64,000 nt of DNA, from IMG/VR virus record IMGVR_UViG_3300013426_000016, positions 96,001 through 160,000 of that record. One strand, 5' to 3'. The position numbers were made by a program, and so were the translations under genes. The first letter of the stretch is position 1. Every line of letters starts with the position of its first letter. This document shows, piece by piece, positions 1 to 54,049 of this stretch. Origin of the DNA: a virus. Taxonomy: Duplodnaviria; Caudoviricetes. The notes below the pieces were generated by a model. It did no database searches. It saw nothing but the letters and a program-made list of their open reading frames with translations, and was not told the DNA's origin.

Positions 1-3000
1 TTAATAGGAGCATTTACATCAAAAGCAGTGCCCTTAAAAGAAAGAGCATTATTAGAAAGTAAATGGCCATTTTTTATCACATAAGAATCTGGAGAAATAC
101 TTTCACCATAAACTAATTTAAGATAATCATCAATATTATAAGCACGAGAATTTGGAGAAGCACCATCTCTAACGTTATCTGCTTGCTCTTGTTCCCTTGC
201 TACAAAAATTACTTCTGGTTTTCCTCCAGTATTTGTAACAGTATCTAAAATAGTTTTAATTACGCCAATAGTTTTACCAGAACCAGCACTTCCTAAAACA
301 GTAGCTAAGTTGTATAAAGGTAGTTTATCATTAACATAAACCTTAAATACATCATTAATTTTTGGGTCTATAACTGCTGACTTCTTTATTTCAGACAAGA
401 TACCATTAAATACAGTAGGACTTTTAATTTGTGCTAAAATTTGTCTAGTAGCATACTCCTGTCCATATATAGGAATGATACCTTTTCCATCTTTCTTATA
501 GGTATCAATAGTTCCAGCATAGGCTCTATAAAACTCTGTAGGAGAAATAGAAGTAATAGTAGCTAAATGATAAATTAAATCTAATGGACTTATTTTAGTT
601 TCCGGATCAGCATTTAATAATGTATTTGGAGCATTATACAAGCTCTTAACATTAAAATTACTTAAAATATCTTTAACAACTTCTTCTGGAGTCTTACCTG
701 TATATTTATCATAAATTTTCTGTTCAAAGTCAATAAAATGATTTTCCCAAGCAGCATAAGTATCTTCGGTAGGATTAAATGAATAATCCCCCCACATATC
801 TTTATACTCTTGTGAAAGATCAGTTAAGCTCTTTGCCCATTTAGCACCCATATTAAGTGCGGTATCCTTATGTACTCTAAGAGTTTTAGCAGAATTTACA
901 GCAGATAAGGCTCTTAAATAAGCAATCTCCCCTTCATAGTACTGAGCTTGTTGGAGTATATGTTTTGCTGCGCGTTCAGATAAAATAGGTAATTTAGAAA
1001 GAGTATCTCCATCTATATGCTTAAAGTTATTAATTATATCATTAGTACCATCAGCGGCACCAGTAACAACAGCACGTATAACTTTAAATACAGGATCGAG
1101 TTTTTCTGAACTCAAACTGTCTTTAATAATAGGATTCTGCATTATATAATCTTGCAGTGTTTCAGAGGAGATTACATTCTTTCTTTCTTTTTCTAGAACA
1201 TCAAATAAAGAAAGAGTTTCTGCATCAGTCCCTATATTCTTTGCAAGTTCTATAAAGGCAGAGTAATTAATTTCATTCTTTAACTCGGAAAACTCCTGAA
1301 CTATATCAACTATATTTTTACCTCCAATTACAGGTAACAAGGTATTTAAAAACTCATTTAAATAAGATTCATTTCCAGAGTCTAAAAGTTTACTCTTATT
1401 TTTAATAATGTCTTGTAATTCAGTGTAGTACTTCATTACATTTACATCATTTCCTAAAGAGTCTACTAAAGCATCAACAGTCTTTTTAATAGAGGCTTCG
1501 GCTGAATTTCCTTGTATAAACCATTCTGGATCGTAAGGATCAATAGCAGTAGCTAAAGCAACTTTCGGTATAACATTCCCATCATCATCGTAGTATTTTT
1601 CTACAAGATTAAAATAAGCTTGCATCCAAGTATTTGCTCCACCACTTGCTTTATATGCCTTTTTAATACCATCATAGAAAGCATTTAATTCTCCATCATC
1701 AAATCTATACTTAGACTTATCTGCTTGATACTGAGTTAATAAACTATTTAATAAAGCATTTGTAATTTTACTCTTAGAAGGAACTTTATCATCAAATAAA
1801 AGAAGTTTATTTTTCTCGTTAGAACCCTCTATAAATAAATCTAAATCTTCAGCAAGAGAAGCTTCAGATATGGCTAATTCTGGATTATTAATAACTGTTA
1901 AAAGCTTTTTACTTAATTCCGTTAAAGAAGATTGTAAAGAAAGTTTTTCTTGCTCTTCTTCTGGAGTTAAATTTTGTTTGTCTTCTAATTGTTTATAACG
2001 TTGTAATTGCTGTTCTTGTTCTGCTTGTATATTAGCCAAGTCAGAAAGTCCAAGTAAAGTAGGAACATTATTCTGATCAAAAGTCTCGTCTAATTGTTTA
2101 CCTTGGGCTTCTATAGGAGCAACAAATTTAGAAGATAAATCTAAATATAAATCGTATGCTTTATAAACATTATTTCTACCTTCAGTATCCAAATAGTTTT
2201 TATGCTCTTCTTTAATTTTATTTTGCTGCTCGTCTGTGAAAGAATTTAAACCTCGCCCATATCTGGTTTTAACATATGTGTCTAATGAGAGATCTACAAA
2301 GTTCTTATTTAAATTACTATCAGCTGCGAAAAGAGCTTGTCCACTGTAATAACGATTTTTTGCACCATTAAAGAAAGCTTCTTTCTCTTTTCTTAACTTC
2401 TTTAATTTTTCTTGTAATTGCTTTACTTGTGAGTCTTCTTCTATTCCTTCTGCAACAGTTTTTCTTTCATCTTGTGTTTCAGCAGGTTTCTCTGATAATT
2501 CTTGAACTCGTGCTTGTAAAGCAATTTTTGTTTTAACAAGGTCTGTTAAATTATCATATAGAGCATTTTGGAAATTATTATAGTCTTTTAATGCAACTAA
2601 AGTACTAGTGCCTATCAGCTTAGGATTTTTTAAGATTTCATTAGTATCATAACCTAAAACACGAAGCTGATCCATACCCTCTTTAGACATATAACGCAAG
2701 TCTATTTCTTGATTAATAGCTTGCTCATAAGTGTCTAAAGTATTTTTTAAAGTTTTATATACAGCATCGTTCTGATTTATTCCAGTAGTTTTTGGTATAA
2801 ACCTCTCTTGGCCATCTAAAGTTTTAGTAACTTCTCCATCTATGGACAAATCTTCACTTCCCAGCAACCCTTTCTCGTGCCATCTGTCTAAATAATAATC
2901 GATTTCACTTCTTTTACCTGTAGCTATATAATATATAAGTTTTTCTATATCAGGTAATTCTGTAGGACTCTGACCAGTTAATTTATTATTAAGCCATTTT

Positions 3001-4730
3001 TCATAGCGATGTTGCCCAGCGAAAATCATTCCACTCAAGAAACCTCCACCAAAAGACGCTATATATCTTTGTATTATATCAGAAACACTAAAACCAAAAT
3101 CTATCGGTTCATCATCTTTAGTAGTTTTAATTCCTAATGCATCTAAAGCAGTTGTAGTAGCCTTTACAAGGTCTGTAGTAACTTCTTCCATGGTTTCCTC
3201 AGCACCTTCAGAAAAACCTCTATTAATTAAACCAGGAACACCTTTTTTAGAAAGACCTTTAAGCATTGTATCCTGGTAAAAATTAGAAACTTTATTTAAG
3301 AAAGTAGCTGCTTTCTGTGGCGTTTCTAATCTAGCAGCATTTGCTAAAGCATCCGCAGTTTCTCTAGAGACTCCTCTTACAGCAGAACGAATTTCACTTT
3401 CATCCATAAAAGTATCTTTAAAGAGATTGTCTCTAAAGTAATCGATATTCATTAATTTATAAAGAGCCAGTGTACTAGCAAGCATTCCCAAAGAAGCAGT
3501 AGTATCATTAGCACCGGCTTCCTTAAATGCTCCATAAGTTTCTTGTGCAGAGGTAGCAGCCATATAAGCAAGAGAGAGATTCTTACTTACATCAGAAACG
3601 GATTTTAAATCTTTAACGCCATTAGCTTTTGCAATTAAAGTAGGAAGAGTGGAAACCGCACGCTGTTCAAATAACTGTTTAGAAATATCAGCTACCAAGT
3701 TTCCTATGTTTTCAAAAGATACAAAGTGATCTCTTCCATAGTCAGAAGCAGTAGTATCATATGCAGCAGCTCTATTCTCCCAATTAGTAAGAAATTCTCC
3801 TATAGAATTATCGTTTGTACCCGATATAAGACCATTAACAGTTTTACCAAAAACAGGCATTACTCGAGCAATTGCATTAGCCGCACTTACATAACCATAA
3901 ACTTCTCCAACATAAGGTATAAATAAAGGAGCTACTTTAGCTACTAATTCTAAGGCTACTTTACCAGCTCCTTTCTTTACATCATCACTATCGAAAATAT
4001 CTACTTTGTTTCATTTAGAGCCATCTACAGTAAGTATATCACTTCTGCGAAGTAGATCCTTGCCATACATTTCTCTACCAGAAAGAGTTTCATAATAAGG
4101 TTTTCCTTCTGCATTAAATTTTAAATCTCCCGCTTTATGTGGAATTGTAATGCCATTTTCTTCATGTGTACCATCTTCATCCCACTGTGCTAAAGCCATA
4201 GAAGGTAAAGAGAACCAACTAAACAACCCTGCTTTATCATTTGGCGTATAATCAAGTTCTTCTCCCGTTTCATAATCAACTACTTTCTGAGTTTGTGCAA
4301 TCTCACGCACACTCAATTTATTCTTTTTTCCAGAAAGTTCCGTTATATAAGAAATACCTTGTGAGTAATCAAAAGGTTTTTGGTCTACAATCATTATAGG
4401 ACTTGTATCCCTTTTAATTGCATCTGCTGGAGCATACCAAGCATCTGGACCAAAAGAAAGATTTCTTGTTATATTATCAAATAAAGAGTCTTCTGCCATA
4501 GTAGCATACTGTATCTGAGCATCTTTATAAACAGAGTCAAATTTCTTTTGGTCAAATTCTCCTGTAGGAGTTTTAAAAGCATCTACAACTTTAGGCATAG
4601 CCATATACTCCTCCTTAGTAAGCAAGGAGGAGTTTTCGGCAGTGATTCCAGCATCTTTAAAGTCAACTAAAGAAAGTTCTGGATTCTTTGTTATTATGGC
4701 TAAAAAATCATTCTTTTTTGTTTCATTCAT
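1..4730 (-). CDS. Giant virion-associated (ejection/cargo-type) protein, N-terminal ~1576 aa, truncated at window edge; contains a P-loop NTPase motif
   Basis: ATG at 4730. One TGA at 4011 (DGSK-W-NKVDIFDSDD), after which the frame appears open to position 1. Motifs GFSEGAEETMEEV (~3200) and Walker A VLGSAGSGKT (~270-300). Confidence 0.75.
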
Positions 4731-6612: not shown

Positions 6613-9600
6613 TTATTTCATTAATTTTAAAAGCAACTGAGTCAAGTTTTTATTCATATCCTTAACTGCCTCTTTTGCGGCTTTATCACCTTGTATTACG
6701 AGTTTTTCTCGCTCTGTTAATTTAGTTCCTTGTTTAGCATAAATGTTTTTAATGAGTAAATCATTATATGCCTTATGCTGCTTCTGGATCATGTCTCTCC
6801 ATTCTTTTCCTTCTTGTATTTCAAGATATTGTTTATAAGCAGAAGGAGTTCTAGTTAACCAGTCTTCAAATCTTAAAGTACTTCCCGAAGCATCATACTG
6901 CTCATATAATGAAGAGAGTGCGTTTTTCTTAGCCAAAGATTGTTCTTTCTGTAATTCAGAAATCTGATTATCAAGATTATAACTCTTAACAGTATCATGC
7001 TTAGTTCTAAGATCCTGTCTTACTTGTTGTGAGTAAGTATTCCATATATTAGACCACTTCTCATTAAGTTCATTTGCTTTTAATTGTTCATCTAAAGCAT
7101 TTACATTAGTAATATAAGCACTCTGTTCATTAGCTACATTAGCATTAATTTGAGAGATTTGATTTAAGGCATTTAATCTAGCATCATTATAACGAGAAGT
7201 ATAGTCAGAAAGTTCAGTTCCTTTTTGTGCTTCTAAATTAGACATTTGTTCAGAAAGAGCTAACTTTCCAGCTAAATTAAGCATAGAGTCGTTATAAGTA
7301 AGTTTAGTATTAAGTAGCGGGTTTTTAGCAGCATTATACTTCTGTTCTATACTAGAAGAGTTAAAAGTGGGTAACTGAACCTGAGGAGCTATAAATTGTC
7401 TCTTTTTACGTTCTGCGTTTGCATCATGCAAATAATCATAAGATCTAGAAATGTCTCTATTTTGTAACAAGGCAGAACTTAAATCGAGTATAGGAGAAAG
7501 ATTTGTTCTAATAGCCTCTCCAAGTAATCCACCTATTTGATACTTAGGAAGTTGGCCACCTTCTTTAAATCTCCAATCGTATTTAACTTTCATTTCATTT
7601 ACACGTTTATTAAAGTAAGCATCTTTTTCTGCGGTAGATTTATTTTTATACTTAGCATTAGAAAAGTTATTTCTAAGTTCAGCTACCAAAGCTCTTGCGG
7701 ATTTAGGGTCTTCCTTAACTAACTGCCTGAAAGTAGGATCGTTTCCAAGTTCTTCCAATTCTTGTAAAGTATTTTTCTTTAAAGCAGATTTAATTTTAGC
7801 TTCGACTTTTGCTAACTGTTGCTTATTAGGACGTTCCTTAGCTTCTGCTCGCATTTCAGCACGAATCTTACTTAATTCACCGATATTAAACCTTCGACTA
7901 CCACTTGTTATTTGTATAGGCTGACCTATTTTTGGGAATTCAAATTTAGTAGATCTTCTTAAAGGATATAAAGCTCTATCTACTTGTCCCAACTGATTTC
8001 AAATAACAGGAGAATTAAGAGTACGTACAGCTTTATTTGCAGTATCTAAATTTTCATTACCTAAAATAACGTCTCCCGTAGGAATATTTCTTACAGGTGT
8101 ATTTGTACCTCTTGTTAATAAAAGAGTTGGGGTATATCCTTGGCGTATAACAGGGCCGGAATCTATATTTGTACCCACATCTGGAGTAACATGCGCAGGT
8201 AATCTATAAATAACAGTAGCTGGTCTACTTAAATCCGGAGCCATGCCAGTAGCAGGAGTTGCATAAGGAGCGCTTCCTCTACTCTGACGTATATTAGCCC
8301 TACGACCAAACTGCCAAGGCATTACAAATTGTTCTGTATTTTCGGTTGTTCTAAATCCCAAAGCACCGGGGTTCTGAGCTCCAAGTCTACGTAAAGCACC
8401 TTCCCAAGTATAATCTTTAGTTCTTTTAGGAACTCCGTTTTCAAATAAAGCGTTATCATAATCTTCTTTTGTAAGACTCTTTACTACATTTGCCTGCTTA
8501 TCATTTGGTCTATAATTACCTAGAGCACGATTTCTTAAATTAGAATGGAAGAAATAATGTGCAGTAGAATTACCCTCTTGTGGGGTAGGTTCTTCAAATT
8601 CAACTTTGGATTTCTTAAAGATTTTAGCAAATAAATTTTGTTTCTTGGCACTAATATTAAAGTCAGCTAAAGCTTTTGCAGCTTGGTCTTCAGTCATAGT
8701 AATACCAGCTTCATTTGCTTTACTTATAAGTTTGTTAATAACAAGGGCTCGATTTCCCTTAGCTTCTGTTACTATATTTGCTATATCCTCATTTTTAAGA
8801 GTTAAATTTTGGTTTCCAATACGAGTATTAAATTCTCCTCTTAAATTTGCATTTGCAGCTTCAGCAGCTTTTCCAGATGCTTTCGCTGCTAATCTTGCAT
8901 CACCAAGTTGTTTACTCCACTGTTTACCTGCCACAATACCTCCAGAAAGACCATTTGCAAGATTTATCAAATCCTCTGAAGTGTATTTCTCGCCATTAAT
9001 GATTTTAGAAGCAGTATTAATTAAAGCTGAACTAAGTCCGATAGTTCCCATATACTTTAATATAGGAGTACCGATACCTTTAACTACTCGAACAAATTTA
9101 GATGCTTTAATAGCATTATCTAAACCAGGAACTAAAGAAGCAGGTAAAGCGGCAAGATCAAAAGCTGTATTAATAGCTAAGTCTTTTACAGCTCCCCATG
9201 TAGATTTTTCACCTTGTTTTAGATCTCCCATAAAGCGTAATCCAGTACCAGTTAAACCAGCTCCTGCACCAATAGCACCGCCTACAGGTCCGGCAAAGGA
9301 ACTGACAACACCCCCTAAATCAGCAATAGCTCCCATTATTTGAAGTTGTTCTGCTTGAGTTAATCCTCCATTTGAACCGTCCAAATTATGTGCTTTTGTA
9401 ACATCGTGCTTTCTAGGAGTTTTAGGTTCTTCATATTTACCTAGTGTAGTACCGTTTATATGACTAGAAGACGTGAGAGCCCCTCCTATTTGATATTTTC
9501 CTACATCATTAGAAGAATGGGTTTTTTTATATGCACCATAATTAAAAGCTGCCACAGGAAGAGTAAACAAAGGATGTAAAGAAGCAAGTGGACTTAAACG

Positions 9601-23588: not shown

Positions 23589-24037
23589 TAGTAATAAGTT
23601 TTTCCTGCATTAACATTATCTATAAACATCTTTTTATATGGCTTAGTTAAGTGTATAGTTTTTCATTTTGTTCTTCCTCCTCCATATCACTCTAATACTA
23701 AGTCATATGCTACAAAATTAGTAGCCAATAAATCAATATCTTTAAATCTACCTCTTTTACAGTATAACTGTAATTCTTCTCCCACAAAAGGCTTTACATA
23801 TATTTGTGCTTTTCTAAAAGCTTTCGTAGGTAAGGCAAAAGTAACATTATTTTGGATAATATCCAAGCATATTAAATATATACAATATGTAAATACAAGT
23901 CCACAATAAACTTTTCTTTTATTTGAACCATACTCTTTTTCTAAAGTTTTTGCTTTAATTTTTAACTGCTTTACATTAAAATTATCAAATAGTTCTTTGG
24001 ATGAAAAAGAAAAACTGTTATAAGATCTTCCTACCAT
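23588..24037 (-). CDS. Conserved crAss-like tail-region protein, possibly IHF/HU-like (149 aa)
   Basis: Two TGAs read through to a TAA overlapping the next ATG. Ends NAGKTYY. Confidence 0.55.
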
Positions 24038-24732
24038 TATTTAATCGGATTATAAGTTTTATTAAAAAGCTTTCTGTCCCAACAGGCTTTTACATCTAAA
24101 ATATTGTTCATATCATTTTGGTTCAGTTTCTCAGGTATTCTAGCAGCATTACATTTTCTTAACCATTCTGCTTCTAAATCTTTAGCAAACTGAAGTATAT
24201 TACGATCTTTCTTTTTTAACCCTTCTTTATAGGTTTCTCTCCAAGCTACAAAAGCAGCTATCGCTCTCTCCTCCTTATTATTAATTAAAGGTAATCCTGT
24301 TTCATCTTCTACAAGAATTCCATGATATAAAACAGTTACATTTCTAAAGTCTCTTTCAAAATATAAAACTCCATCACCTTCTTTATATTTAATTAATTTA
24401 CCTTTAACATAAAAAGGACTAACTCCTTTCTTGGAACGTTCTATATAATTCTCAGTATTAATTGCATCTGTATCCAAGAAATCAGTTTTATTACTAGAAA
24501 CTTGGGCATCTATTATAGGTATATATACAGCCTCTATTATATCTGCATTACAAGGGAGTACTAACTCTTTATCATTAGTATCCGCAGTGTATTTATATAA
24601 ACGAGTATGTTTATTTCCTATAGTTTCCCAACCAGTAAGGGCTATATCTTCAAAATTATCGAGTTTAATGTCTATTCCATAAATTTCATTTACTAATGGA
24701 AAGACTGTATTCATACTATGTAAATTACCCAT
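24037..24732 (-). CDS. Putative tail tubular/ring protein
   Basis: ATG at 24732. LPCN...IEAV and Y.GIL.EDETGLPLIN motifs; gene order. Confidence 0.6.
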   Translation of the reverse strand: MGNLHSMNTVFPLVNEIYGIDIKLDNFEDIALTGWETIGNKHTRLYKYTADTNDKELVLPCNADIIEAVYIPIIDAQVSSNKTDFLDTDAINTENYIERSKKGVSPFYVKGKLIKYKEGDGVLYFERDFRNVTVLYHGILVEDETGLPLINNKEERAIAAFVAWRETYKEGLKKKDRNILQFAKDLEAEWLRKCNAARIPEKLNQNDMNNILDVKACWDRKLFNKTYNPIK

Positions 24733-24733
24733 A

Positions 24734-25399
24734 TTATATGTTTTGTGGTGCTTGGTAAAGTGGAGTTCTATACAATTGTAACTTCTTATTAAGTATTCTG
24801 CGCTTAATTTCGTCACTTATAGATCCCATATCTAAATAGTCCACATCTGTGCAACAATTATATTCTTTTAATTGTCTAGGGTCTTTAAAAGTAGCTATTA
24901 TTGCTATATTCTTTACATACGGAGCATTAAATATCCAACCATCATATTTTCCATTTTCGTTTAAGGTCCTTTCTATATAAACATATGGTTTATTAAAGGC
25001 TCTTTTCTTATACTGATGGTATCTAGTAGCTTCTTTAGTAAAATATACTTTATAATACTCATCTCTATCGGTACTTCCTATAAATGTAATTGCTTCATCT
25101 CCAAGGCCCTCTGCAAGAGCGGGTATCTCAAAGTGTTTGGCAAGTTTAGCATTTGGAATTCCCTTACAAACGCATTTATTTTGGTCTTTACAATCAACTT
25201 CTACACAATTAAGTGCAACTGCTAATTCTCCTTTAGTTAATAGACTTTTTAAATACCATTCTCTAATTATAGTAGCTCTTGTTTCGATACATTCGTCTTC
25301 TATCTGATCGAGAGAAATAAATTGTCTATTGGAAGCAGGAATCATTGTACCACTAATTAAATCGTTGTATATCGCTGATACTAATTCTTCTAATTGCAT
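24734..25399 (-). CDS. Putative tail/neck ring protein
   Basis: ATG at 25399 follows a terminator. FKDPR motif; gene order. Confidence 0.55.
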   Translation of the reverse strand: MQLEELVSAIYNDLISGTMIPASNRQFISLDQIEDECIETRATIIREWYLKSLLTKGELAVALNCVEVDCKDQNKCVCKGIPNAKLAKHFEIPALAEGLGDEAITFIGSTDRDEYYKVYFTKEATRYHQYKKRAFNKPYVYIERTLNENGKYDGWIFNAPYVKNIAIIATFKDPRQLKEYNCCTDVDYLDMGSISDEIKRRILNKKLQLYRTPLYQAPQNI

Positions 25400-25401
25400 A
25401 T

Positions 25402-25443
25402 AAAAAGAAAAAGGACGAGCGAGATCGGCTCTCACTCGCCCTT
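25402..25443 (-). terminator. Intrinsic terminator after the Ig-domain gene
   Basis: Minus strand AGGGCGAGTGAGAG...CTCGCTCGTCCT followed by TTTTCTTTTT. Confidence 0.65.
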
Positions 25444-25468
25444 AATTGGTTTATTAATTATTTATAGA

Positions 25469-26488
25469 CTAAGATACACCAGATACAGTTACCTTAACAG
25501 AAGCGGAATCTCCGTTGTAAGAAGCAGTAATAGTGGTGTCACCATTAGCAACTCCAGTAACGAGGCCAGTATGAGCACCTACAGTTGCCTTTCCAGCAGC
25601 AGAAGAAGTCCAAGTAGCCTTAGTAGTTACATCCTCACCATCGAAGATAGCCTTAAGCTGAGAAGTCGTCTTTCCAGTAATTGCAGTAGAGCCAGAGATG
25701 GATACCTTACGCTCAGAAATCTTACCAGAGAGCTTGCCTTCAAAAGCAGATACAGCAGACGGAGCTACATAGAATACAATAGTAACCTCAGACTCGATTG
25801 CCTGACCAACAGCACTTAAGCCACCAAGACCAGGACGCTCAACCTTATAATTAAAAGAGTACTGAGTATACAGCTGTCCGTCTACAGGAGACTCATCAGC
25901 ATAAGGAGCAGCATACCTACGATTGTAGTAAGTAGGGAAACGAAGGTTCTCAACAAGCCACTTTCCAGTAGCAAATTCCTCTACATTCTTAGTAACAACA
26001 TATGCAGAGTCAGCAACAGCAGAGCCATCAGAAATCTTAACAATCTCTGGCTGCTCTGGAACCATCCAAGACTCAGCGAGAGTAATAGTAACCTTAGCAC
26101 CACTTACAGATACAGAGAAAGGAACACTATCCATAGCAACAAGCTTAAGAGCCTCTGCAAGATTCTTAGCCGCATCAGCAGCAGTAGCAGAACCAGCAAA
26201 CTCTACCATAATAGGCTTACCAAATTCTGCCCAATTAGCCATAGCAAAGTCAGAAAGAGACTTAGATGGCGTAGAAATAAACATAGTAAAGCGATAAGGC
26301 TCAGCAACGAGTGCTGGTACGGTAATCTCAATCTTACCTACAGAACCTGCTACGCCAGCAGTCTTGTATACGCTGCCTACAATCTTAGAAAGATCGTAGT
26401 TACCTGCACGCTTAATAGCAAGCTGCCCATCTACACTGAGGATAGCATCTGCTGAATTAATAATAGTTTCTTTTATATAATTAAACAT
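25469..26488 (-). CDS. Auxiliary capsid/structural protein with C-terminal Ig-like (Big_2) domain
   Basis: ATWTSS...ATVG...GLVTGVANGDTTITASY Big_2 signature. Codon style similar to the capsid gene. Confidence 0.75.
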   Translation of the reverse strand: MFNYIKETIINSADAILSVDGQLAIKRAGNYDLSKIVGSVYKTAGVAGSVGKIEITVPALVAEPYRFTMFISTPSKSLSDFAMANWAEFGKPIMVEFAGSATAADAAKNLAEALKLVAMDSVPFSVSVSGAKVTITLAESWMVPEQPEIVKISDGSAVADSAYVVTKNVEEFATGKWLVENLRFPTYYNRRYAAPYADESPVDGQLYTQYSFNYKVERPGLGGLSAVGQAIESEVTIVFYVAPSAVSAFEGKLSGKISERKVSISGSTAITGKTTSQLKAIFDGEDVTTKATWTSSAAGKATVGAHTGLVTGVANGDTTITASYNGDSASVKVTVSGVS

Positions 26489-26513
26489 GATAATTTTCTA
26501 TTTTTAAAGTTAT

Positions 26514-27563
26514 TTAGGATTTGCTTTGCTCTGCCCCAGGAGTAGCAATAGTCTTGTTAATAGGGATATTTGTCTGAAGCCTTGGATCACTTGCATTTTC
26601 CATAAGCAATCTTACAAATATATTTGCAATCTCAAAGCAAACATAATCTGGAAATTCAAGAATTTGTGAGTAATCAAGAGTAGCATCGATCTGCTCTTGT
26701 GTAAGACGGATATACATAGGCGATTTTAAATAGTCAATGTATAAGTTCTTAGGAACAAATACTCCGTCATCATTACCAAAACGAAGTTCAAGTCTAACGC
26801 TAGAAGGGTTAGATAAACGATCTCCCTGTGCGTTATAAGAGTCTACCAAACTTGAATTAGAAGTAGATATTACTTTCTTTGTAGCCTTATCCCACTCCAA
26901 CTTAGCTGCATCTAATTCTTCAGCAGCAGAACTTACAGCATCCTCTTTTTCAGTAGTGCCATCGTTAGCTTTAACTGCCGCGGCATATGCCTCTAATGCA
27001 GTCTGATAAGCAGCAGTAATTTTAGAATCCACATTAGCAATACCATTAGCACTAAGGATTTTAGAATCCATAGTAGCATTACTTGGTAAAGTAGTAGTAC
27101 TATTAATATTATTTAAATAATAGTAAGGCCTTTTATACATAGGACGCATATACGCGTTATTAAGTACTTGCGTATACATGTCTGGAGTAAGTCTTCTACA
27201 AGGGAAATAAACAGAATCTCCGCGATTATAGCATTTAAACACTGGAGCTGAAACTTCATACTCTACAATGCAATTAAGCAAATGCATATAATCGTCTGGA
27301 AGATTTACACTGTAAGAAGACTTAAAGAGGTTGTTGCCAGTGATAGAATCAGTCATTTTAGTAGGCTGAAGGATAGTAGAGGTTTTTAATACTCTAATAT
27401 CATCTGTACTTTGCTGGTCAATTTCAAGTTTCTGATAGACTAGATTTATATATTGCTGAACAGCCTTATTAATAAAATAGTTATAATCCTCCAAAATAAG
27501 AGAAGGAGCTTCTAACTTATTTAATTCAATAAGCGCATATTCATACAGCTCTCTAGAAGTCAT
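26514..27563 (-). CDS. Putative head-tail connector/ring protein
   Basis: YNYFINKAVQQYIN, LPDDYMHLL, YIDYLKSP and LEFPDYVC motifs. Two genes downstream of the capsid gene. Confidence 0.6.
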   Translation of the reverse strand: MTSRELYEYALIELNKLEAPSLILEDYNYFINKAVQQYINLVYQKLEIDQQSTDDIRVLKTSTILQPTKMTDSITGNNLFKSSYSVNLPDDYMHLLNCIVEYEVSAPVFKCYNRGDSVYFPCRRLTPDMYTQVLNNAYMRPMYKRPYYYLNNINSTTTLPSNATMDSKILSANGIANVDSKITAAYQTALEAYAAAVKANDGTTEKEDAVSSAAEELDAAKLEWDKATKKVISTSNSSLVDSYNAQGDRLSNPSSVRLELRFGNDDGVFVPKNLYIDYLKSPMYIRLTQEQIDATLDYSQILEFPDYVCFEIANIFVRLLMENASDPRLQTNIPINKTIATPGAEQSKS

Positions 27564-27576
27564 ATTAAATATTTAT

Positions 27577-28431
27577 TTATTTTTTACTAGCCTTTTTTAC
27601 TTCAGCCTCTGTTTCTTTAATAGCCTCATCGAGCTTAGAAACAGGAGCATATTCTGGGTAAGTAACTAGTTTAATTTGTTCAAGGATTTTCTTATTATCC
27701 GGCTGCTTAAAGAAGAGGATTACCGCCTCATCATTAACTCCAAGAGGGACTTCTCCAAAGAAGTACATTCCCTTATTCTGAACTATCTTACCTCTATCTC
27801 TGGCATCTATGAACAGAAGCTTAAGCTTCATATCTCCCCCAGTATAAAGATCGATAATTTCATCCGGATTCTTTTCTGCTCTTTGGTACAGATATTCCTC
27901 AACATCTGTTGCTGGAGCATTTCCCATATATTTGCCAAGCAACTTGCACTTCGTAAGTCTGCTAGCAGGAGAGTCTGCTCCAATATAAGTCCAAGCTTTA
28001 TTAATCTTCTGCATACGTGAAACATTACGCTCAGAAGTTTCACCTGGAACTTCTACATATAACTCTGCGATACCATAACGCTGCTGATTACCGTCTATAT
28101 AAAGATTTCCTTGGTTGTCCTTAGCATCTCGCGTAGGAACAATCAAATCGTTATCCTTAATAGACATCCATATATTATATTCAAGAGGATTATCAAGGTC
28201 AAAAGTAGTACCACTAGTAACTACAATATCCATATCCTCTGGGATAAAATAATCACGGTTAGGATCATTCATTTCATCTGGACTAAGTATCATCTCCGAA
28301 TTTCCCTGAGAATCGTATCTTACAGGCTTTACCCAAGAGTAACGAACACCATTTTTCTGACGGCACGGCTGGAAATGATACTCCTTTACCGGACCCAATA
28401 CGCTTCTAAGAGTAATAACTCTATTCTCCAT
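27577..28431 (-). CDS. Conserved protein downstream of major capsid gene
   Basis: 284-aa ORF with FDLDNP motif; gene order as in crAss-like phages. Confidence 0.6.
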   Translation of the reverse strand: MENRVITLRSVLGPVKEYHFQPCRQKNGVRYSWVKPVRYDSQGNSEMILSPDEMNDPNRDYFIPEDMDIVVTSGTTFDLDNPLEYNIWMSIKDNDLIVPTRDAKDNQGNLYIDGNQQRYGIAELYVEVPGETSERNVSRMQKINKAWTYIGADSPASRLTKCKLLGKYMGNAPATDVEEYLYQRAEKNPDEIIDLYTGGDMKLKLLFIDARDRGKIVQNKGMYFFGEVPLGVNDEAVILFFKQPDNKKILEQIKLVTYPEYAPVSKLDEAIKETEAEVKKASKK

Positions 28432-28468
28432 AATTTTCTCTCTTTTTTAACTAAAATCTATATAATTT

Positions 28469-28499
28469 AAAAACTACTCCCCAAATAAAGGGGAGTAGT
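28469..28499 (-). terminator. Intrinsic terminator after major capsid gene
   Basis: Perfect 10-bp stem ACTACTCCCC/GGGGAGTAGT with a minus-strand T-tract. Confidence 0.75.
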
Positions 28500-28517
28500 A
28501 TATGTTATTTTTTCTTT

Positions 28518-31500
28518 CTACTTAAAGAAAGAATCACGTGTCTCTGAACCCATCATGATCACTGATCTATATGGGTTAAACACAGCCACGCTTGCATAGC
28601 CCCAGTCAATGTATTTAACGCCAGCTACAGGAGAGGAAACAACTCCTCCTTGGAGTCCTGTAGCTCCACCTCATTTTACATTTTAATTATTTCTAATTAA
28701 ATCAGACTATATCTTTATCCTATATTCTATTACCGTCTATAGGACATTTCCCGTTTCCATCATTTAGATGTACTCTACTCCATTACTTCTTTTAAGATTT
28801 GCTTAAAAGTACTGTTTCGATAGTCGTTGAACTTTCGGTAGAGCTTCGTAATACGCTTGCATATCCTACCGCTTAGCTGCTGATTATCCAATCTTTAACA
28901 TTTTCACCTTTTAGGTAGTTAAAGCTATAAGGAACTCCCAGCAATTAGAGAAATTATTTTTTCTTAGTATTACTACTAAGTGGCGCAAGTGGTTTAGTTT
29001 ACGCCATTTACAATGTTCTGGATCAAATCTCCACCCTTAAAGGTGAAGTAACCGAGTGCAGGACGGCCCGTAGCTGCATCAGCAGTAAGGTCGATGATTG
29101 CACCAAACGCACGGTTAGGGAACTCTACATCAAAGCTCCTATCAAGCTTAACAAGAAGTGTGTTCTTTATTATTAACTATAATTATTTCTAATTATACTA
29201 GACTATATCTTTAACTTTCTTCTTTTACCGTTGAAAGTCATTTCCTGTTTCCATTATTAAAAAATGTACTCTACTGATTCTTTTTTAATATTTCTTTAAA
29301 AAAGAAATTTTCGATAGTCGTTGAACTTTCCCCACGTATAAAAGATACAGAGGGGCTTAGCTGCTGATTGACCAATCTTTATAATTTTTAAGCATTCACA
29401 CCTAATGTTTCCATTTATGTTATAGCTTATAAAGCTTAAGGTTTTTCCAGCAATTAAGGAAATTTATTATAAATAGATTTCTCTATTTAGGTGGCAACAC
29501 ATTTTACCACCATACTCGTAAGCAGAATACGTAGCTCCGAGCTTAATGTAGCCATTCTTTTCTTTAGAGTACAGGAAGGCGTTGTCAGACTTGTGCTCTA
29601 CAACCCACTTACCCATTACACTCTGCCACTGATTATAGAAGAAAGTGTTGCACATTAAAATGTACGTATTCCCTTGTGCCTTCTCAGACTTAGCGGACAT
29701 GGCCATAAGAGCCTTCTCAAAATAATCAATGGTAAGTTTGTTAAATACAAACTTGGTAGCGAAACGCTCTACCTGCGGTATTACCAATTTGTTAATATAG
29801 CATTGTTTATATGCTATTTCTTATACTTTTATTCGCATAAGATCAGACTATATCTTCACCTATATAGGTGACTCTTGTTCGTGAAGTTATATTATTCTTC
29901 TGGAGACATTAGTTTATATTCAAACTCGGGAAGTATATAAGGCCTTAATAAAGAAGACCATTTTCTACCTTCTCTAGTTCTACATTTTAAATAATATCTA
30001 ATTTCTCCTTTTTTATTTAGTTTTTTAATCGGATAAAAATTTATATCATATTTCTCTTTAAAGAAATCTATAATATTTTGGGTGTCTTCTGGATTAGTCA
30101 TAGTATAAAAATAGAAAGAATGAGAACGGATTTTTTTAGTTCCTTTATAATAGTCTTTTGCATGACTACCATCATCCATCCATCATAGAGCAATTGCTTC
30201 TGGAGTTAAATAGTTTAGCATTTTTCTACTAAACCTCTTTTCTCCACTTTTATATATCCATTTATATAATATTCTAAAATACCTATGCCCTTTACTTATT
30301 TTATAGGTATCTTTTTTTATTCTATGATATATACTTGGAAGTTTTCCACCTAATAAGGTAACAAGTAAGTTAGCCTTATATTCAAGGTAACTTTTTTGCT
30401 TACTTCCATGCTCTATTTCTAAAGCAACACCACTGTGAGCATTTAAATGCCCATCTCCTAAAATTAATCCAATTAAAAGTGCTTTTTTTCGTTTATCCAT
30501 ATAAAATGATAGTAATTACAATAATATAACTCTAGTCGTTACACCTTCCTTATATAAGGCTTGGCTCGGTATTCTCATCGCAGAGTTCACCGAATTAAAG
30601 AGTTTTTGCATAACTGATTTCTCAGTTAAGCGGCATAAAGTTTACCGTCCGTAGAAATGAGCGGCCTACCAATCTCGTCATAGCGTTAGACTATATCTTA
30701 TTCTATAAAGACTGTATATCTGATGTATTTCCATAAAAATATCTTCATCTTAAATTCTTACAAGTTTTACTTTTACCTTCTATAACATTATAAATAGGCC
30801 CCGGAGTTATATTCATATACTCAGCAGCTTCTTTAACATTTGTAAAAGATTTTATAAACTTGCCTTCTAAAGTATAAGATGCACAAGCTGTATTTTTCTT
30901 AGAGGCTCTTAAAGCAAATCTTTTCTTATAACTTCAAAAATAACCTCCAGCCTGTATTTGTTTATCCACACAAACTGCAAATATAGATTTATATGAAATG
31001 CCAGTTTGTCTGTCAGCCTCATGTAAAGACTTGTAATAAGTTATATAATTTCCTTGTAAATCAAACTGATAAACAACTTTTTCTCTGTTTTTACAAGGAG
31101 ATATGCTTTCAGTACTTCCCGTGAAAAACCTTCACTGAAAATCTTTGCATTTCCTTTCTTTTAAGCAAGCATCTCCAATACCACTTTTAGAAATACCTGT
31201 TTCTCTGGAAGCTTCGGAAATAGAGTTTCAAGTTTTTATAAAGTTACCTTCCAAATCATACTGATTAACTTGTTTTTCACTTACAGAAGAAGGAACTTTT
31301 CCTCCTAAACAACTATTATAAACATCTTTTCTCTTTATAAATTCTCTATTTACCAATTCGGCTTCTTTCTTATATGCTGCTATTTTACCCTTCTCTGTAC
31401 CAGGAAATTCATATAAAGTTTCCCTTACAAAATTATTTATTCCATATTTAATAACAGCTTTCTGAAAAACAGTAGAGTGTTTTTGCTTTAAATCTCCTTT

Positions 31501-32845
31501 ACAGGAAATTCCACAGCCTATATAACCATCGAAATCATCAGAAAGAGTACCGTGTACTCCTATATATATTTTACCATTTATGGTATTTGTTGTCTTGTAT
31601 ACTATATATTTTAGCATTAGATCTGAACTTTTAGTCGTTGAACATTTTCCTCTATGAGGAACCTTTGCTGCTGATTATCTAAATATTATTTTTTTCAGAC
31701 TTTCACACTTACTAAAAAGTTATGTTGTAGTAAATAATATATAAAGAACTCCCAGCAATTTGAACAGTTTTTAACTATACATTACTGCATAGAAAGACCT
31801 ATGATTGATCTTGGGCTTCCCGTCAGCCGAAACGTTGCCCTTACCCCAGGTAAGAGAATTGTTACGAGCTTCCATGAAGTTGTCAAGACAATCCTTTTCA
31901 GCAGGATTCATCTTGTAAACATGATCAGTAGATTCGTTACCTTTACCTATCTTAATGAAAACATCTTCCATACCAGCGTACTTAGCAGACATATCCACAT
32001 CAACACGGTGAGTAGAAATATAAGTACGAGCCTTCTCTACGTTAGACTGAGCCTTTACGTAACCAGTCTCGTGAAGCTCCGGCTTAATGTTGGTAATCCA
32101 ACGAGTAGTAGCACCTACGAGGCTACCACCAAGCTTGTCAATAGTAGAAGAGTAATCGTTGTCGTTAATCTTAGCAACTACAAGCCAGCAGTTATCACGC
32201 AGACGCTGCGGAGTATTAACTACAATAAAGTGCTGACGAGTCTTCTCGATTACGAAAGTATCCTCTTTCTGGTAGTAATTTTCACTAAAATAGAACTTAA
32301 TATCACCAGCATTTGCACCATCTCCTTCTGGCTCAGCAATGAGCGGAAGACGCTTTACCTTGTTAACTACAATATCCCACTCAATAAGGAAAGAGTTAAC
32401 TGACTGGAAACCCTTCTTAGCCTTCTCCTGTGTGAAGGTGTTCATAAGAGCTTCAGTAAGGTGCGTAGCTGTGTATTGATCGTATAACGTAGATACGATT
32501 CCTAAACGTGCGGGATTCTCCGCTTGTTATCCTATAGGCTCTTTATCCTATAGTTCATATATTTTACCATCATATATGTTCAGACTATATCATCACTTAC
32601 GTGCCTGGCGCTCGTGTCTAGAAATTCTTATAAAGAACTCTAATTAGTCTTTGAACCTTTAAAACGATCACTCGTTAAACTTGGCTGCTGATTACCCTAT
32701 TATATGAGAATTTCATTTGGAGGGTTCCCAGCAGTTCACCAGGTTTTATTTGGGCGAGACTTTCACCCAAAAATTTAGAAAAGTCCTCATAAGTGCGCGT
32801 AGCTGGCATATTCGGACGTACGGTTGTAAAACCTGAAATTCTCAT
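28518..32845 (-). CDS. Major capsid protein, spliced (476 aa). Exons 32845-32765, 32520-31808, 30683-30644, 29784-29506, 29164-29001, 28671-28518
   Basis: Exons sum to 1431 nt in one frame: MRISGFTT...SKFLG|ENPARLG...GKPKI|YDEIGRPLISTDG|VIPQVERFA...YEYGG|NTLLVKLD...IVNGV|GGATG...FFK*. Every junction has a P1 U-G pair, a terminal G and a P10 pairing. Size and position fit a crAss-like MCP. Confidence 0.9.
28672..29000 (-). mobile_element. Group I intron 5 of capsid gene (329 nt, no ORF)
   Basis: P1 UGGCGU/GCGCCA; P10 CCACUU/AGGUGG. Core AAUUGCUGGGA, AAUCAGCAGC, GUUCAACGACUA, AAGAUAUAGUCU. Confidence 0.9.
29165..29505 (-). mobile_element. Group I intron 4 of capsid gene (341 nt, no ORF)
   Basis: P1 GGUGGU/GCCACC; P10 UGUGUU/AACACA. 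Full P/Q/R/S elements. Confidence 0.9.
29785..30643 (-). mobile_element. Group I intron 3 of capsid gene (859 nt, LAGLIDADG ORF)
   Basis: P1 CGGU/GCCG. Core AAUUCGGUGAA, AAUACCGAGC, GUGUAACGACUA, AAGAUAUAGUCU; terminal G at 29785. Confidence 0.9.
29892..30500 (-). CDS. Intron-encoded double-motif LAGLIDADG homing endonuclease (202 aa with TGA=Trp)
   Basis: LIGLILGDG and EAIAL-W(TGA)-WMDDG motifs; joins two track ORFs. Confidence 0.85.
30684..31807 (-). mobile_element. Group I intron 2 of capsid gene (1124 nt, GIY-YIG ORF, no visible P9)
   Basis: P1 AAGAU/GUCUU; P10 UCAUAG/CUAUGA. The ORF lies between the R and S elements. Ends AAGAUAUAGUCUAACG. Confidence 0.85.
30703..31617 (-). CDS. Intron-encoded GIY-YIG homing endonuclease with NUMOD1-type repeats (304 aa with TGA=Trp)
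   Basis: YIVYKTTN..NGKIYIGVH. Repeats of YDLEG.FIK..S..EA. TGAs at 31228, 31132, 30934 and 30745 give KT-W-NS, FQ-W-RF, GGYF-W-SY and LR-W-RY. Ends TAG. Confidence 0.85.
32521..32764 (-). mobile_element. Group I intron 1 of capsid gene (244 nt, no ORF)
   Basis: P1 UUGGGU/GCCCAA; P10 UCUC/GAGA; P3 CCUGG/CCAGG. Core AACUGCUGGGAA, AAUCAGCAGC, GUUCAAAGACUA, GAUAUAGUCU. Confidence 0.9.
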
Positions 32846-32869
32846 AATTAAATAAATTTTAAATTAATA

Positions 32870-33940
32870 TTATATTAAGCCTGATTTATCCCATAAATCA
32901 AAGTCGGCAGTAGGCTTAGTTTTATCTGCCGGAGGAACAATAACAGTATCTTTACCAACTTTATCAAGTTTAGCTTGCAATTTCTTATTCGTAGCTCGCT
33001 CGTCGGCAAGCTGCTTCTTCCAGTACTTACTCAAATCAGAAAGCACATCTGCGCCTTTCGTACGCAACCATGCTAACTCTATAAGAGTATCTGGATTCTC
33101 CAAGTCTTTTACAAGCTGTGATTTACCATCTTTGTCTTGGTCAAGTATATATGACAACATTTGTCGTTTATCTTCGTCCTCAATTATTAGAGCGTCACTC
33201 TCAGCGTCTGTATAGTCTAACTGTACAGCATTAAAATTACGAGAAGCCTCTAACAAATTGTTTCTAAGATCTTCAGCCTGTTTTTGTTCTGTTTGCTGCT
33301 GATAAGCCACTGCTGCATCTTCTTGTTCTTTAAAGTACTTTCTAAGAGATTCACTTTCTTTCTTAAAAAGCTCTTCATTAGATTTTGCTGATTCCAACTT
33401 AGACATAAGTTCTTCATCAGTAAAATCTGGATATCTGTTTTTTAAATCTATTAAGTACAGATCATCATCACTGTAGTCATCAATTTCATAAGTACGTTGG
33501 TGTACTTGTTCTGGGTGAGCATTTAAATACTGCTGCAAATAATTATTTGCATAAGCATCTAAAGCTTGCTCCAAACTAAGATTACCATGTTGTCTTAAGA
33601 AATTAATAGCTCTCGTCTCATTTTCTGAGAGCCCAGAATCTGTTACTTGCGTAAGAATATCAATCTTATCCTCTGTACTTAAAGAATTAAAATCAATTTC
33701 TTCTTCGCTTCCATCTTCATTACTAATTACTATCTTACTTGGATCTTTTACTCCTCGCTGTTGCAAGAACACGTAAAGTGGATCTTCGGAAGTAGTCGGT
33801 TCTGTGGAAGTAGTTTCGTCTGCTTCAACTACAGTATCCGGTTGTGTTTCTTCTTCTTGTACAGTTTCCTCTACAGGTTCTTGTACTTCCTCATCAACTG
33901 ATACCGGGTCTAACAGATCATCAAAAAAATCATTTCCCAT
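32870..33940 (-). CDS. Acidic protein upstream of capsid gene, putative scaffolding protein
   Basis: Strongly Asp/Glu-rich and helical; lies immediately upstream of the MCP. Confidence 0.6.
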   Translation of the reverse strand: MGNDFFDDLLDPVSVDEEVQEPVEETVQEEETQPDTVVEADETTSTEPTTSEDPLYVFLQQRGVKDPSKIVISNEDGSEEEIDFNSLSTEDKIDILTQVTDSGLSENETRAINFLRQHGNLSLEQALDAYANNYLQQYLNAHPEQVHQRTYEIDDYSDDDLYLIDLKNRYPDFTDEELMSKLESAKSNEELFKKESESLRKYFKEQEDAAVAYQQQTEQKQAEDLRNNLLEASRNFNAVQLDYTDAESDALIIEDEDKRQMLSYILDQDKDGKSQLVKDLENPDTLIELAWLRTKGADVLSDLSKYWKKQLADERATNKKLQAKLDKVGKDTVIVPPADKTKPTADFDLWDKSGLI

Positions 33941-34003
33941 AAAACTTTTTTCTTATTTGTTCTCTAAATCTATTTATATAGCTAACATTTAGCTATTTTG
34001 CTG

Positions 34004-34035
34004 CAAATATATATAAAATAAATTATAAATCCAAA
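34004..34035 (-). promoter_or_regulatory. Bacteroidota-type promoter for scaffold/capsid operon
   Basis: TTTG-N20-TATATTTG on the minus strand. Confidence 0.7.
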
Positions 34036-34045
34036 TTTATAAAAT

Positions 34046-34075
34046 AAAAAAGGCGAAGAACTAAATCTCCGCCTT
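34046..34075 (-). terminator. Intrinsic terminator
   Basis: Minus strand AAGGCGGAGA...TCTTCGCCTT followed by TTTT. Confidence 0.65.
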
Positions 34076-34080
34076 ATATA

Positions 34081-34554
34081 TTACTCTTCTGGAGCAGTCC
34101 AAAGAACTCCCTCCAGTACACTTTCAATAGCTCCAGAGAAAACGTCTGTTTCTTTATCATTAATCTTAACAGCTCTATTCTCCTTCTTAAGCTTAAACCA
34201 ATCCTCATAAGAGAGAGATTTAACACCAGAAATATCAACATCATCTGTATAAAGAGCCTCTCTAAGAGAGATATACTTCTTAAGCTTCTCTCCCATTTCA
34301 TCAAGCTCCTTCTTTTCCTCTTCTGTAGGATTTTCAATTTTTGCAAGTTCTGTTCTACGAGCATCAAAAGATGCACCATCTTCAATTCCTGCGTTCTTAA
34401 GCAGATCACGTTCATCTTCCTGTAATTTTTCAAATGCCTTCTGTACAAGCTTCTTAAACTTATACAGCTTATAGGCAGACTCTGGGCCAAGCTCATAAGC
34501 AGTAGTCTGCATAAGACCAGAGTTCATAAGTGCTAAAATTTCGTAATTCTTCAT
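34081..34554 (-). CDS. Hypothetical helical protein (157 aa)
   Basis: ORF with ATG start followed by a terminator. Confidence 0.6.
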   Translation of the reverse strand: MKNYEILALMNSGLMQTTAYELGPESAYKLYKFKKLVQKAFEKLQEDERDLLKNAGIEDGASFDARRTELAKIENPTEEEKKELDEMGEKLKKYISLREALYTDDVDISGVKSLSYEDWFKLKKENRAVKINDKETDVFSGAIESVLEGVLWTAPEE

Positions 34555-51629: not shown

Positions 51630-54049
51630 TATGCTTCTTTAATTTTATCATTATATGGGTTATTATCATTTAACTGAGCATACTCAAGTTCAGTTTGCTT
51701 TTCTTTATTTGCAGCAATTCTATCATTATAAGTTTTGTCATTAAATACTTTCTGAGTATCAAGATCAAGTCTCTTCTGCTCAAGAGCCAGCTTTTCAGAA
51801 CTATTCTTTTCAACTTCTTTCTGTAATTTATTATTATTATCAGTAAGAGAGTTAATTTGCTTAGAAGCCTCTTGTAATTGCTGTGACATTTCTTGTAATT
51901 TCTGTTGTAATTGCTGAATTATATTATTCTCTTTCTTCTTAGCAGAAACCGCAGAGTTAACATAACTCTTAAGTTCAGTAAGATTCTTAGCTGAAATAAT
52001 ATTAATCATCATTTCTGGATCAGCTTGTCCAGATTTTACAAGCTCTATACTTATTTGCTTAAGCTCATTAATCTTTTGGAAAACCTCTGTACTATCCTGT
52101 ATGTGTATATCAAAATCAGTCATAGTGTAATACTCAGGTAAAGTAGTATATATTTGGTTTAACTCTAAACCATTAATAAGAGTACCACAAATTCCTGTTT
52201 TAAAGGCTATTTTAGCTTGGTTTAACAAATCATAATTAACTTCTTTATAAAGAAGATCCATCGCTGAAAAATACTGCTTTGTAAGCAAAGTAGACTGTCT
52301 AATTCCTACTTTTACATTACTAACAGCATCTCTTTGTTGTATTCCTCCCAGTTTCTCTGCAAATACACCAGTAATAGAACTAGCTTGCTGCTCTATACTT
52401 TCTAGTACATACTGAAAAGCTTGTATACACTGAGCTTTAATAGTATCGTCATACCCATTAAAAGTAGTATTAATTAATTGGCTCCCTTCTTGTGAAGAGT
52501 CGAATAATGCTACTCCTTGTTTTTTATATGCCATCCACATTTGTACTCTATCCGGTAGTTCTTCGCCAAGATAAGTAGGTAAATGGGCAGCATCCAACCA
52601 ATCTCCAACAGTTCCAGAAGAAGCAATTAAACTATCCCTGTAGAAGATGGTAAGATCATATCTCGTTTTGTTCACGTAGTTTCGCTAAGACTACGCCGCT
52701 TTCGCTGCTGCATATTTCTATGCAGTCCAGACTATATCATAACATTTCTGTTTCCCGTGCTTCGTAACGCTTGTTACTATAATTAGTCGTTGAACCTTCC
52801 CCAAAAAAGGGCTCGGCTGCTGGTTGTCTTCGTCTTTTCTCGTTAAGAGTTCCCAGCAATTCTCGGGATTTACCCAGGACTAGATAAGTCAATCCTGCAA
52901 GTCCATAGTACTCAACATAATACTAAATGGCATTCCATTCTTATCTTCAAAGAAAATACCATTTATAGAAAGAGAACATTCTTTAGGATTACTAATACTT
53001 CTTATAACAGTTTTAGATTCTCCTCGTACTATGTATATTTCTCCTCCTATACGAACTCCTTCATGCCTATAAAGAGTACCCTCTTTATATTCAAGCCATT
53101 CACATTCGTAAACTTCCCAAACTTTAGCATTGGTAATTATTCTATCCTTATTTTGCATAGGATATACTTCCAAACCGCCTAAAATACCAGGAGCTTTTCT
53201 ACAGTCAAATTCTCCTTTCTCATTATATGGAGAGTATGCAACCGTAGTAACATAATGGTCAGTTAGTCTATTTGTCGAAGAACTTTCTTTTAAAATCTCT
53301 TTTGCTTCTGAAGAAAGTTCATCTCCAAACTCAGCAAGAATTTGTTCTCTATTTAAATATCTACGAATAACCGCTCTTGGAGATTTATTTAAATAATACT
53401 CATTAGGATTTCTTTCTATAAAGGTATCTAATGGATTTAATATCTCTAACTTAATAGCTCCATTTTCAGTTGCTTTCGTACGATAATAACAAACTCCAGA
53501 AATAAGAAGGTCTGTTAATAACTCCCTCATCTTATTTTTTAAATCTATATTTCTAGAGTTTTTAATATAATTTAAAATATTTTGTGCCGCTATCTCATAT
53601 TGAGAAACATAGTTTTTAGAAACATCTTCCTTAATTTGATTAATTTCTTCTTCATAATAAGGATCATTTACAGCACTCTTATTTTCTAAGAAGATTTGGA
53701 TTAAAGCATTTTTAAGTTTCGCTTTAAAGTGCTCTAAAACTGCGGCATCTATCTTTAATTGTTTGTCTCTCATTATATCTGAAACTGTCTTCCTGTCCTT
53801 ACAAGAGATCTGTAGTTCTGGATCGAGTTCCAAATACTCTCCCACTAAAACATCTATATGCTTCTTTATTAAAGGAGTAAATCCTATAGAAGTAGGAGTA
53901 CCGAGACCATAATTATCTTCTAGATGCTTGAACTGCTCTTTGTCTCTAGTACAGTGGTAGTAATTATAAGCTTTCCTTAATTGTACTTTATCATATACTA
54001 ATTCAGAAATACAAGCATTAATTTTTTCTATTTCTTTGTCTTTATTCAT
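51629..54049 (-). CDS. Portal protein, spliced (~730 aa). Exons 54049-52892 and 52663-51629
   Basis: KAYNYY, PLIKKHIDVLVGE and SSITGVFAEKLG.IQQRDAVSNV motifs. Junction MDLQD|RYDLTIF is in frame. Follows terminase. Confidence 0.85.
52664..52891 (-). mobile_element. Group I intron in portal gene (228 nt, no ORF)
   Basis: P1 CAGGAU/GUCCUG; P10 UAUCU/AGAUA. Core AAUUGCUGGGAA, AACCAGCAGC, GUUCAACGACUA, GAUAUAGUCU. Confidence 0.9.

Follow-up and report, generated by a model that had tools for sequence, protein, structure and literature searches.

The major capsid protein (MCP) gene described here lies in a 64,000-nt window of a viral genome (IMG/VR record IMGVR_UViG_3300013426_000016, record positions 96,001-160,000), to which the coordinates refer. 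It occupies the minus strand from 32845 to 28518 and is divided into six exons by five group I introns, I1 to I5, which take up 2897 of its 4328 nt (Table 1). From the comparisons presented below, it is probable that an essential capsid gene has been colonised selfishly by introns that splice by the ordinary pathway, possibly with some benefit during co-infection and probably with protein help for I2. The five-intron capsid gene is a new instance of a known architecture, ordinary for an intron-ridden family, and I2, which ends without the paired regions P9 and P9.0, is a variant.

Exons and splice junctions

The junctions were placed by a single rule, the 5' splice site following the U of the U-G pair in P1 and the 3' site following a G. 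A U closes every 5' exon and pairs in P1 with a G of the internal guide in all five introns, each of which ends in the terminal G (omega-G). The P1 regions fold more stably than their shuffles (z -2.5 to -5.6, P2 being included in some windows), and a P10 pairing of 4-6 or more bp can be drawn for I1, I2, I4 and I5, that of I3 being weak (4 bp including one G-U). A profile-based spliced alignment, from which the query was excluded and on which only the U/G rule was imposed, returned the identical five junctions, exact to the base. The initial annotation had derived the junctions and an intact frame of 476 amino acids (aa) from P1 and P10 pairings; both were reproduced, together with its intron lengths (244, 1124, 859, 341 and 329 nt).

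The spliced coding sequence (CDS) of 1431 nt encodes 476 aa followed by TAG and contains no internal stop codon. Aligned with 18 intron-free proteins, the product shows 59-72% identity and no gap at any junction; this alignment, proposed with the initial annotation, and the PF23898 matches of the intron-free homologues bear out the naming of the gene as that of the major capsid protein. Exon 3 aligns with a conserved homologous stretch of the same 18 proteins. Its description as a 40-nt exon between two endonuclease-bearing introns also holds, both endonucleases being full length only if TGA is read as tryptophan (Trp). No core-less mini-introns are present in the capsid gene, its exon alignment being free of gaps, and the same 4328 nt recur without a difference (100%) in two further assemblies (L310 and L312). 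Skipping keeps the frame only for exon 4, the loss of exon 2, 3 or 5 shifting it, and retention of any single intron brings a stop codon within 1-29 codons. For annotation, the consequence is that gene callers give capsid fragments only and split both endonucleases at TGA. An excess of promoters in the capsid region was not found.

Table 1. Features of the capsid gene and its introns (window coordinates; sites are numbered along the CDS)
Feature	Position	Strand	Description
MCP exon 1	32765..32845	-	81 nt, aa 1-27
Intron I1	32521..32764	-	244 nt, no open reading frame (ORF), site 81 (phase 0); P7.1-type insert, P9 and P9.1; RF00028 76.3 bits
MCP exon 2	31808..32520	-	713 nt; PF23898 E=5e-4 from this exon alone; 72-74% to intron-free MCPs
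Intron I2	30684..31807	-	1124 nt, site 794 (phase 2); long P5 extension, endonuclease ORF in P8, without P9 or P9.0
I2 homing endonuclease ORF	30703..31617	-	304 aa under TGA=Trp (4 TGA, 0 TGG); three NUMOD1 repeats; phrog_314 E=1e-26
I2 5-nt tail	30684..30688	-	3' strand of P7 to splice site, omega-G included; one substitution in L324
MCP exon 3 (micro-exon)	30644..30683	-	40 nt; 5' end forms P10 of I2 (6 bp), 3' end P1 of I3
Intron I3	29785..30643	-	859 nt, site 834 (phase 0); P4 motif type unlike the other four introns
I3 LAGLIDADG endonuclease ORF	29892..30500	-	202 aa under TGA=Trp (1 TGA); PF03161 E=2e-25, 90.1 bits against a cut-off of 25
MCP exon 4	29506..29784	-	279 nt
Intron I4	29165..29505	-	341 nt, no ORF, site 1113; RF00028 75.2 bits
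MCP exon 5	29001..29164	-	164 nt
Intron I5	28672..29000	-	329 nt, no ORF, site 1277; RF00028 73.6 bits; 80% identical to I4 over 157 nt
MCP exon 6	28518..28671	-	154 nt including TAG
Terminator-like hairpin	28473..28499	-	just past the MCP stop codon; consensus match only

Introns and their endonucleases

A search with the Rfam group I model RF00028, suggested with the initial annotation, succeeded in part: I1, I4 and I5 scored above the cut-off, and the ORF-interrupted I2 (38.4 bits) and I3 (23.2 bits) remained below it. The P, Q, R and S core motifs, which form P3, P4, P6 and P7 with the G-binding pair, were found in all five introns. Inserts between P7 and P3' are present in I1, I4 and I5 and there is none in I2. 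The P9/P9.0 elements expected of a group I intron were found in I1, I3, I4 and I5 and are missing from I2, which is filed here as a variant that would work like a group I intron.

The N-terminus of the I2 endonuclease resembles GIY-YIG proteins by eye, and its first 129 aa gave no match to the Pfam GIY-YIG family. The I3 endonuclease has relatives at the same insertion site with 62-72% identity. The reading of the I2 ORF as a broken endonuclease was rejected, its TGA codons matching TGG at three of four positions in L324, the closest relative; between the two, this endonuclease shows a ratio of non-synonymous to synonymous substitution (dN/dS) of 0.076.

Turnover within the species

Contigs of the same species were recognised by identical neighbouring proteins. 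Their capsid genes carry four, five or six introns: L311 has four, with I4 empty; L314 has five of a different set, I4 again being empty and an extra 1180-nt endonuclease intron standing at site 955; L317 has six, including the endonuclease intron at site 955. In L317 and L322 the ORF of this last intron differs by 1 nt in length from that of L314 and falls into two parts (260 + 100 versus 339 aa), which reflects either a frameshifted copy or an assembly error. In the empty I4 allele the exon boundary falls exactly at the predicted position. Around the site, 13 substitutions, one of them at the U in position -1, are crowded into 31 nt, whereas the rest of the gene has 4-8 differences; such a cluster would be the pattern expected of a co-conversion tract or of a cleavage-resistant allele.

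Sites 1113 and 1277 are occupied differently in L329, whose I4 and I5 (positions 1134-2348 and 2513-3858 of that contig) hold endonuclease ORFs. L329 I5 equals window I5 over its first 180 and last 46 nt. The cassette between its P7 strands is another one, which includes an ORF and supplies a P3 partner of its own. The same is seen in I4, where the 5' strand of P3 has changed to match. Between I4 and I5, the cassettes without an ORF resemble each other at 77%. Compared in this way, the variation looks as if introns had exchanged, as a module, the stretch bounded by the conserved strands of P7. An origin of the ORF-less I4 and I5 by simple endonuclease deletion was rejected, the middle segment being replaced and not missing. 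Within a single phage species, the same sites are thus found empty, with an ORF-less intron or with one that bears an endonuclease, a natural snapshot of intron turnover. L329 also has about 285 extra nt relative to the window between two genes downstream of the capsid gene (L329:4099-6232), possibly another intron.

Intron load among relatives

The first homologue searches favour the best-scoring, hence intron-free, loci, and intron-rich loci were reached via their endonucleases; neither set represents a frequency. Within the first set, biased toward intact genes, 163 of 165 loci are intron-free. Altogether, the capsid genes of relatives contain from zero to at least 10 introns and exons of 10-45 nt. 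L301 (4627-10884) has 10 introns with exons of 18, 30 and 34 nt, L284 has 8-9 with exons of 21-45 nt, and L315 (G001:C1 149,000-164,500) has at least 10 spread over 13.6 kb, most of them longer than 1.1 kb. These three counts were checked by motifs; some short terminal 'introns' in L291, L302, L306, L293 and L315 are artefacts of the spliced aligner. A 42-nt exon is flanked by two introns of more than 1.1 kb in L282, and L324 holds a 10-nt capsid exon (9076-9085) flanked by endonuclease-bearing introns at sites 1351 and 1361. The statement that some crAss-like phages are intron-rich agrees with these relatives and with the part of Yutin et al. (2021; PMC7886860) considered here. The load of five introns had also been called striking; that it is exceptional is not supported, given the at least 10 introns found in the same gene of relatives and the five-fragment precedent in the Zeta group.

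Among about 20 selected genes, 29 distinct insertion sites were counted, and other phages carry introns at each of the window's five. Site 81 (I1) is also filled in L282, L287, L301, L304, L306, L315 and L324, site 794 (I2) in L324 (no P9) and L304 (P9 present), and site 834 (I3) in L284, L291, L293 and L298, I3 being absent from L324. In the protein tree, intron-rich and intron-free genes stand as sisters, for example L315 beside L043, and near-sister capsid genes differ by about 10 introns.

Persistence of the introns

We propose that five mobile group I introns would have invaded the single, essential capsid gene of a Zeta-type crAss-like phage. Self-excision of each from the late transcript would follow the usual guanosine mechanism in two steps, and during co-infection the endonucleases would carry copies of their own introns into alleles that lack them. 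The micro-exon of 40 nt would be a mere gap between two sites, 40 nt apart, that were gained independently. The introns would persist by spreading and by splicing well enough, not by timing capsid synthesis. The allele patterns fit homing, resistance and the gain or loss of endonucleases, and they argue against a tuned timing device.

Three observations weigh on the other side. I1, I2, I3 and I5 are present in all same-species contigs covering them. The protein is not unusually conserved where the introns are inserted (p=0.87, from a shallow alignment), and simple homing predicts otherwise. Finally, searches of assembled proteins did not find the spliced product, the best match reaching 71-74%, which is weak evidence either way.

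The endonucleases might also serve the phage by cutting the essential capsid gene of co-infecting relatives, a form of interference competition shown for phage PhiPA3 against PhiKZ (PMC11620839). The endonuclease ORFs are intact and under purifying selection, and the empty alleles are strongly altered around the site, as such a weapon would have it; three of the five introns have no endonuclease, however, and selfish homing predicts the same observations. We regard this explanation as rather unlikely on its own account; it is compatible with selfish colonisation and does not exclude it.

The initial annotation had suggested that the need for five splicing events may act as a timing control. 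Under such an explanation, serial splicing would delay the capsid or couple it to the GTP level, and the arrangement would have been selected for. A 'molecular on-switch' has been proposed for other phage introns (PMC11878797), any unspliced intron brings an early stop, and four of the five introns occur in all same-species contigs seen. The number of introns nevertheless ranges from zero to at least 10 among relatives and from 4 to 6 within the species, near-sister genes differ by about 10, no insertion site is conserved across the family, and the biased first sample consists almost wholly of intron-free loci. Selected timing is therefore unsupported and improbable; a delay of the capsid could still arise as a side effect of splicing.

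An intron without P9

A point absent from the initial annotation is that I2 ends 5 nt past P7, without P9 or P9.0. The distance from P7 to the splice site, tabulated for 74 distinct capsid introns, is typically 29-40 nt, with one P9 hairpin and mostly a GNRA loop, or 52-71 nt. Tails of 11 nt or less occur in four of the 74, namely window I2 and its L324 counterpart (5 nt), an intron at site 1277 of L093 (7 nt) and one at site 81 of L301 (11 nt), so that two further P9-less capsid introns are known (L093:8567-9926 and L301:4933-5118). An apparent 4-nt tail in L293 proved to be an artefact of the pattern used and was discarded. When viral contigs were searched with a degenerate DNA pattern for ends that lack P9, only unrelated matches came up.

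The 3' splice site of I2 is set by the 6-bp P10 and by protein conservation, and P9 is therefore truly absent. At the same site, the intron of L304, which shares the guide sequence and has an endonuclease 58% identical to that of I2, ends in a 29-nt tail carrying a GAAA hairpin. The short end of I2 recurs unchanged in 15 samples, which come from different assembly sources and some of which may share a study. Between L324 and the window, intron I2 and the exons are each 85% identical, at a synonymous distance of 0.8-1.0, with dS put at about 0.85, and the dN/dS of the exons is 0.038 before I2 and 0.052 after it, indicating purifying selection. Since the downstream exons are under such selection and the gene has no second copy, I2 is probably removed in vivo and has apparently kept its function over a long period.

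I2 also has a weak P3, with two U-U mismatches, and a short P8. Over all introns, loss of the P5 receptor and loss of P9 are not significantly associated (p=0.25). When only introns with a long P5 are considered, all 16 that have P9 retain the receptor-like P5 motif, and the three that lack P9 do not (p=0.007, the related pair counted once); this motif was picked after inspecting the data, and the sequences are related.

P9.0 and P10 have been reported to raise the affinity for omega-G (PMC2588497). I2 would be a pared-down ribozyme, relying on P10 and omega-G alone to reach its 3' splice site, probably with a protein chaperone. We advance tentatively, as a reading with nearly even chances, that I2 is a natural contiguous group I intron splicing an essential, highly expressed mRNA without P9 or P9.0, that P9 was lost at least three times (sites 794, 1277 and 81) with decay of the P5 receptor, and that a factor supplied by phage or host replaces the contact, a situation hitherto undescribed. 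Engineered P9 deletions of the Tetrahymena ribozyme retain some activity and older compilations may include other P9-less introns, so the novelty of I2 is uncertain. Standing in an essential gene, with a P9-bearing relative at the same site as a control, I2 offers a simple test of whether P9 is naturally dispensable, and it may lead to a splicing helper not yet known, which would explain the tolerance of many introns.

The truncated end of I2 lies 40 nt from I3, and one could imagine that the micro-exon or I3 lends it a 3' domain or a contact like that of P9, the introns splicing as a coupled unit. This is very improbable: the end of I2 together with exon 3 folds no better than shuffles (z -0.92), and L324 has the same P9-less I2 followed by a 557-nt exon and no I3, so that the micro-exon context is not needed. 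Least credible of all is that I2 is defective, or that the loss of P9 is an assembly error or a recent lethal deletion, the locus yielding no full-length capsid: P9 has been termed an essential paired region (PMC3873408) and the weak P3 and short P8 would fit, yet the same 3' end recurs across the 15 samples and in L324, selection maintains the exons past I2 of a gene present once, and the P5 motif for the P9 loop is retained by the 16 introns with P9 and changed in each of the three tested that have none.

Comparison with known systems

The nearest precedent is the Zeta genome (cMAG) OLRF01000054, whose MCP gene is in five fragments (Yutin et al. 2021; PMC7886860, Fig. 7a). According to the part of that paper considered here, Zeta genomes carry up to 14 introns and recode TGA or TAG. 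As in the window, a crAss-like capsid gene is there split by group I introns and its exons lack recoded stops, most of the introns having endonuclease domains; the capsid gene of the window differs in its six fragments, and the same part of the account does not give base-level junctions, intron structures or strain polymorphism. A later review (PMC10136315) assigns the split-capsid example to OHFV01000001, whose capsid gene is uninterrupted (L114); the paper itself gives OLRF01000054.

Several group I introns in one phage gene, a structural gene included, are also known from orf142 of Staphylococcus phage Twort, which holds three introns and shows skipping of exons (PMC11878797, PMC3073962), and from multi-intron genes of the Bastillevirinae; for phiNIT1, cDNA bore out a small exon flanked by two introns. 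These systems belong to other phage families, have fewer introns and are experimentally validated. The Jug jumbo phages (PMC12880540), like the phage of the window, are gut phages with many group I introns in essential genes, 18.5 per genome on average, about half of the tested ones being supported by RNA reads. They form a different clade, use the standard genetic code and have mostly short introns.

For I2, the closest parallel, and the only published natural case found, is Pr.rnl.1 of Prasinoderma mitochondria, a group I intron likewise modelled without P9, an absence that its authors found very unusual and for which they suggested accessory factors (PMC3873408). Pr.rnl.1 is trans-spliced, and a third piece may be missing; I2, a cis intron, lies in one piece in a phage mRNA, and it has a P9-bearing relative at the same site and two further P9-less capsid introns for comparison.

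The phage, its code and the record

The phage reads TGA as Trp, and what was found agrees with the Zeta group of crAss-like phages. Its capsid protein and that of the Zeta genome OHFV01000001 (Yutin et al.) are 61.6% identical over aa 4-466 and share one supported clade in a midpoint-rooted tree. The Crassvirales capsid family was assigned through the intron-free homologues (about 71% identity), which score 40-50 bits against a PF23898 cut-off of 27; a profile of these homologues matches PhiCrAss001 gp32 (7QOF) weakly (E=0.004). The low-GC phage part of about 157 kb, with eight RF00028 matches, fits the Zeta traits (145-192 kb, intron-rich, often recoded), and the MCP gene is present in a single copy in the record.

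Window ORFs tile only under TGA=Trp, and the genome carries a tRNA with anticodon UCA. None of the 26 Trp codons in the capsid gene and seven neighbours (24037-34554, minus strand) is TGA, against 36 of 175 in the other window genes (p=0.006) and five of eight in the two intron endonucleases. Full-length endonuclease therefore needs read-through and capsid does not. The avoidance of TGA in the capsid region may reflect expression level and base composition.

The record also holds, outside the window, a second phage of about 53% GC with portal, scaffold, terminase and tape measure genes (G000:C1 1-24,866 and 182,053-203,856). It meets the genome of about 157 kb at an 888-bp direct repeat, of which 613 bp are identical and which is 96% identical overall; other contigs of the crAss-like phage measure 153-155 kb. 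Either the assembly is chimeric or the two phages form a real cointegrate. In the window, the probable portal gene is interrupted by another group I intron without an ORF (52708-52929, minus strand; 76.1 bits).

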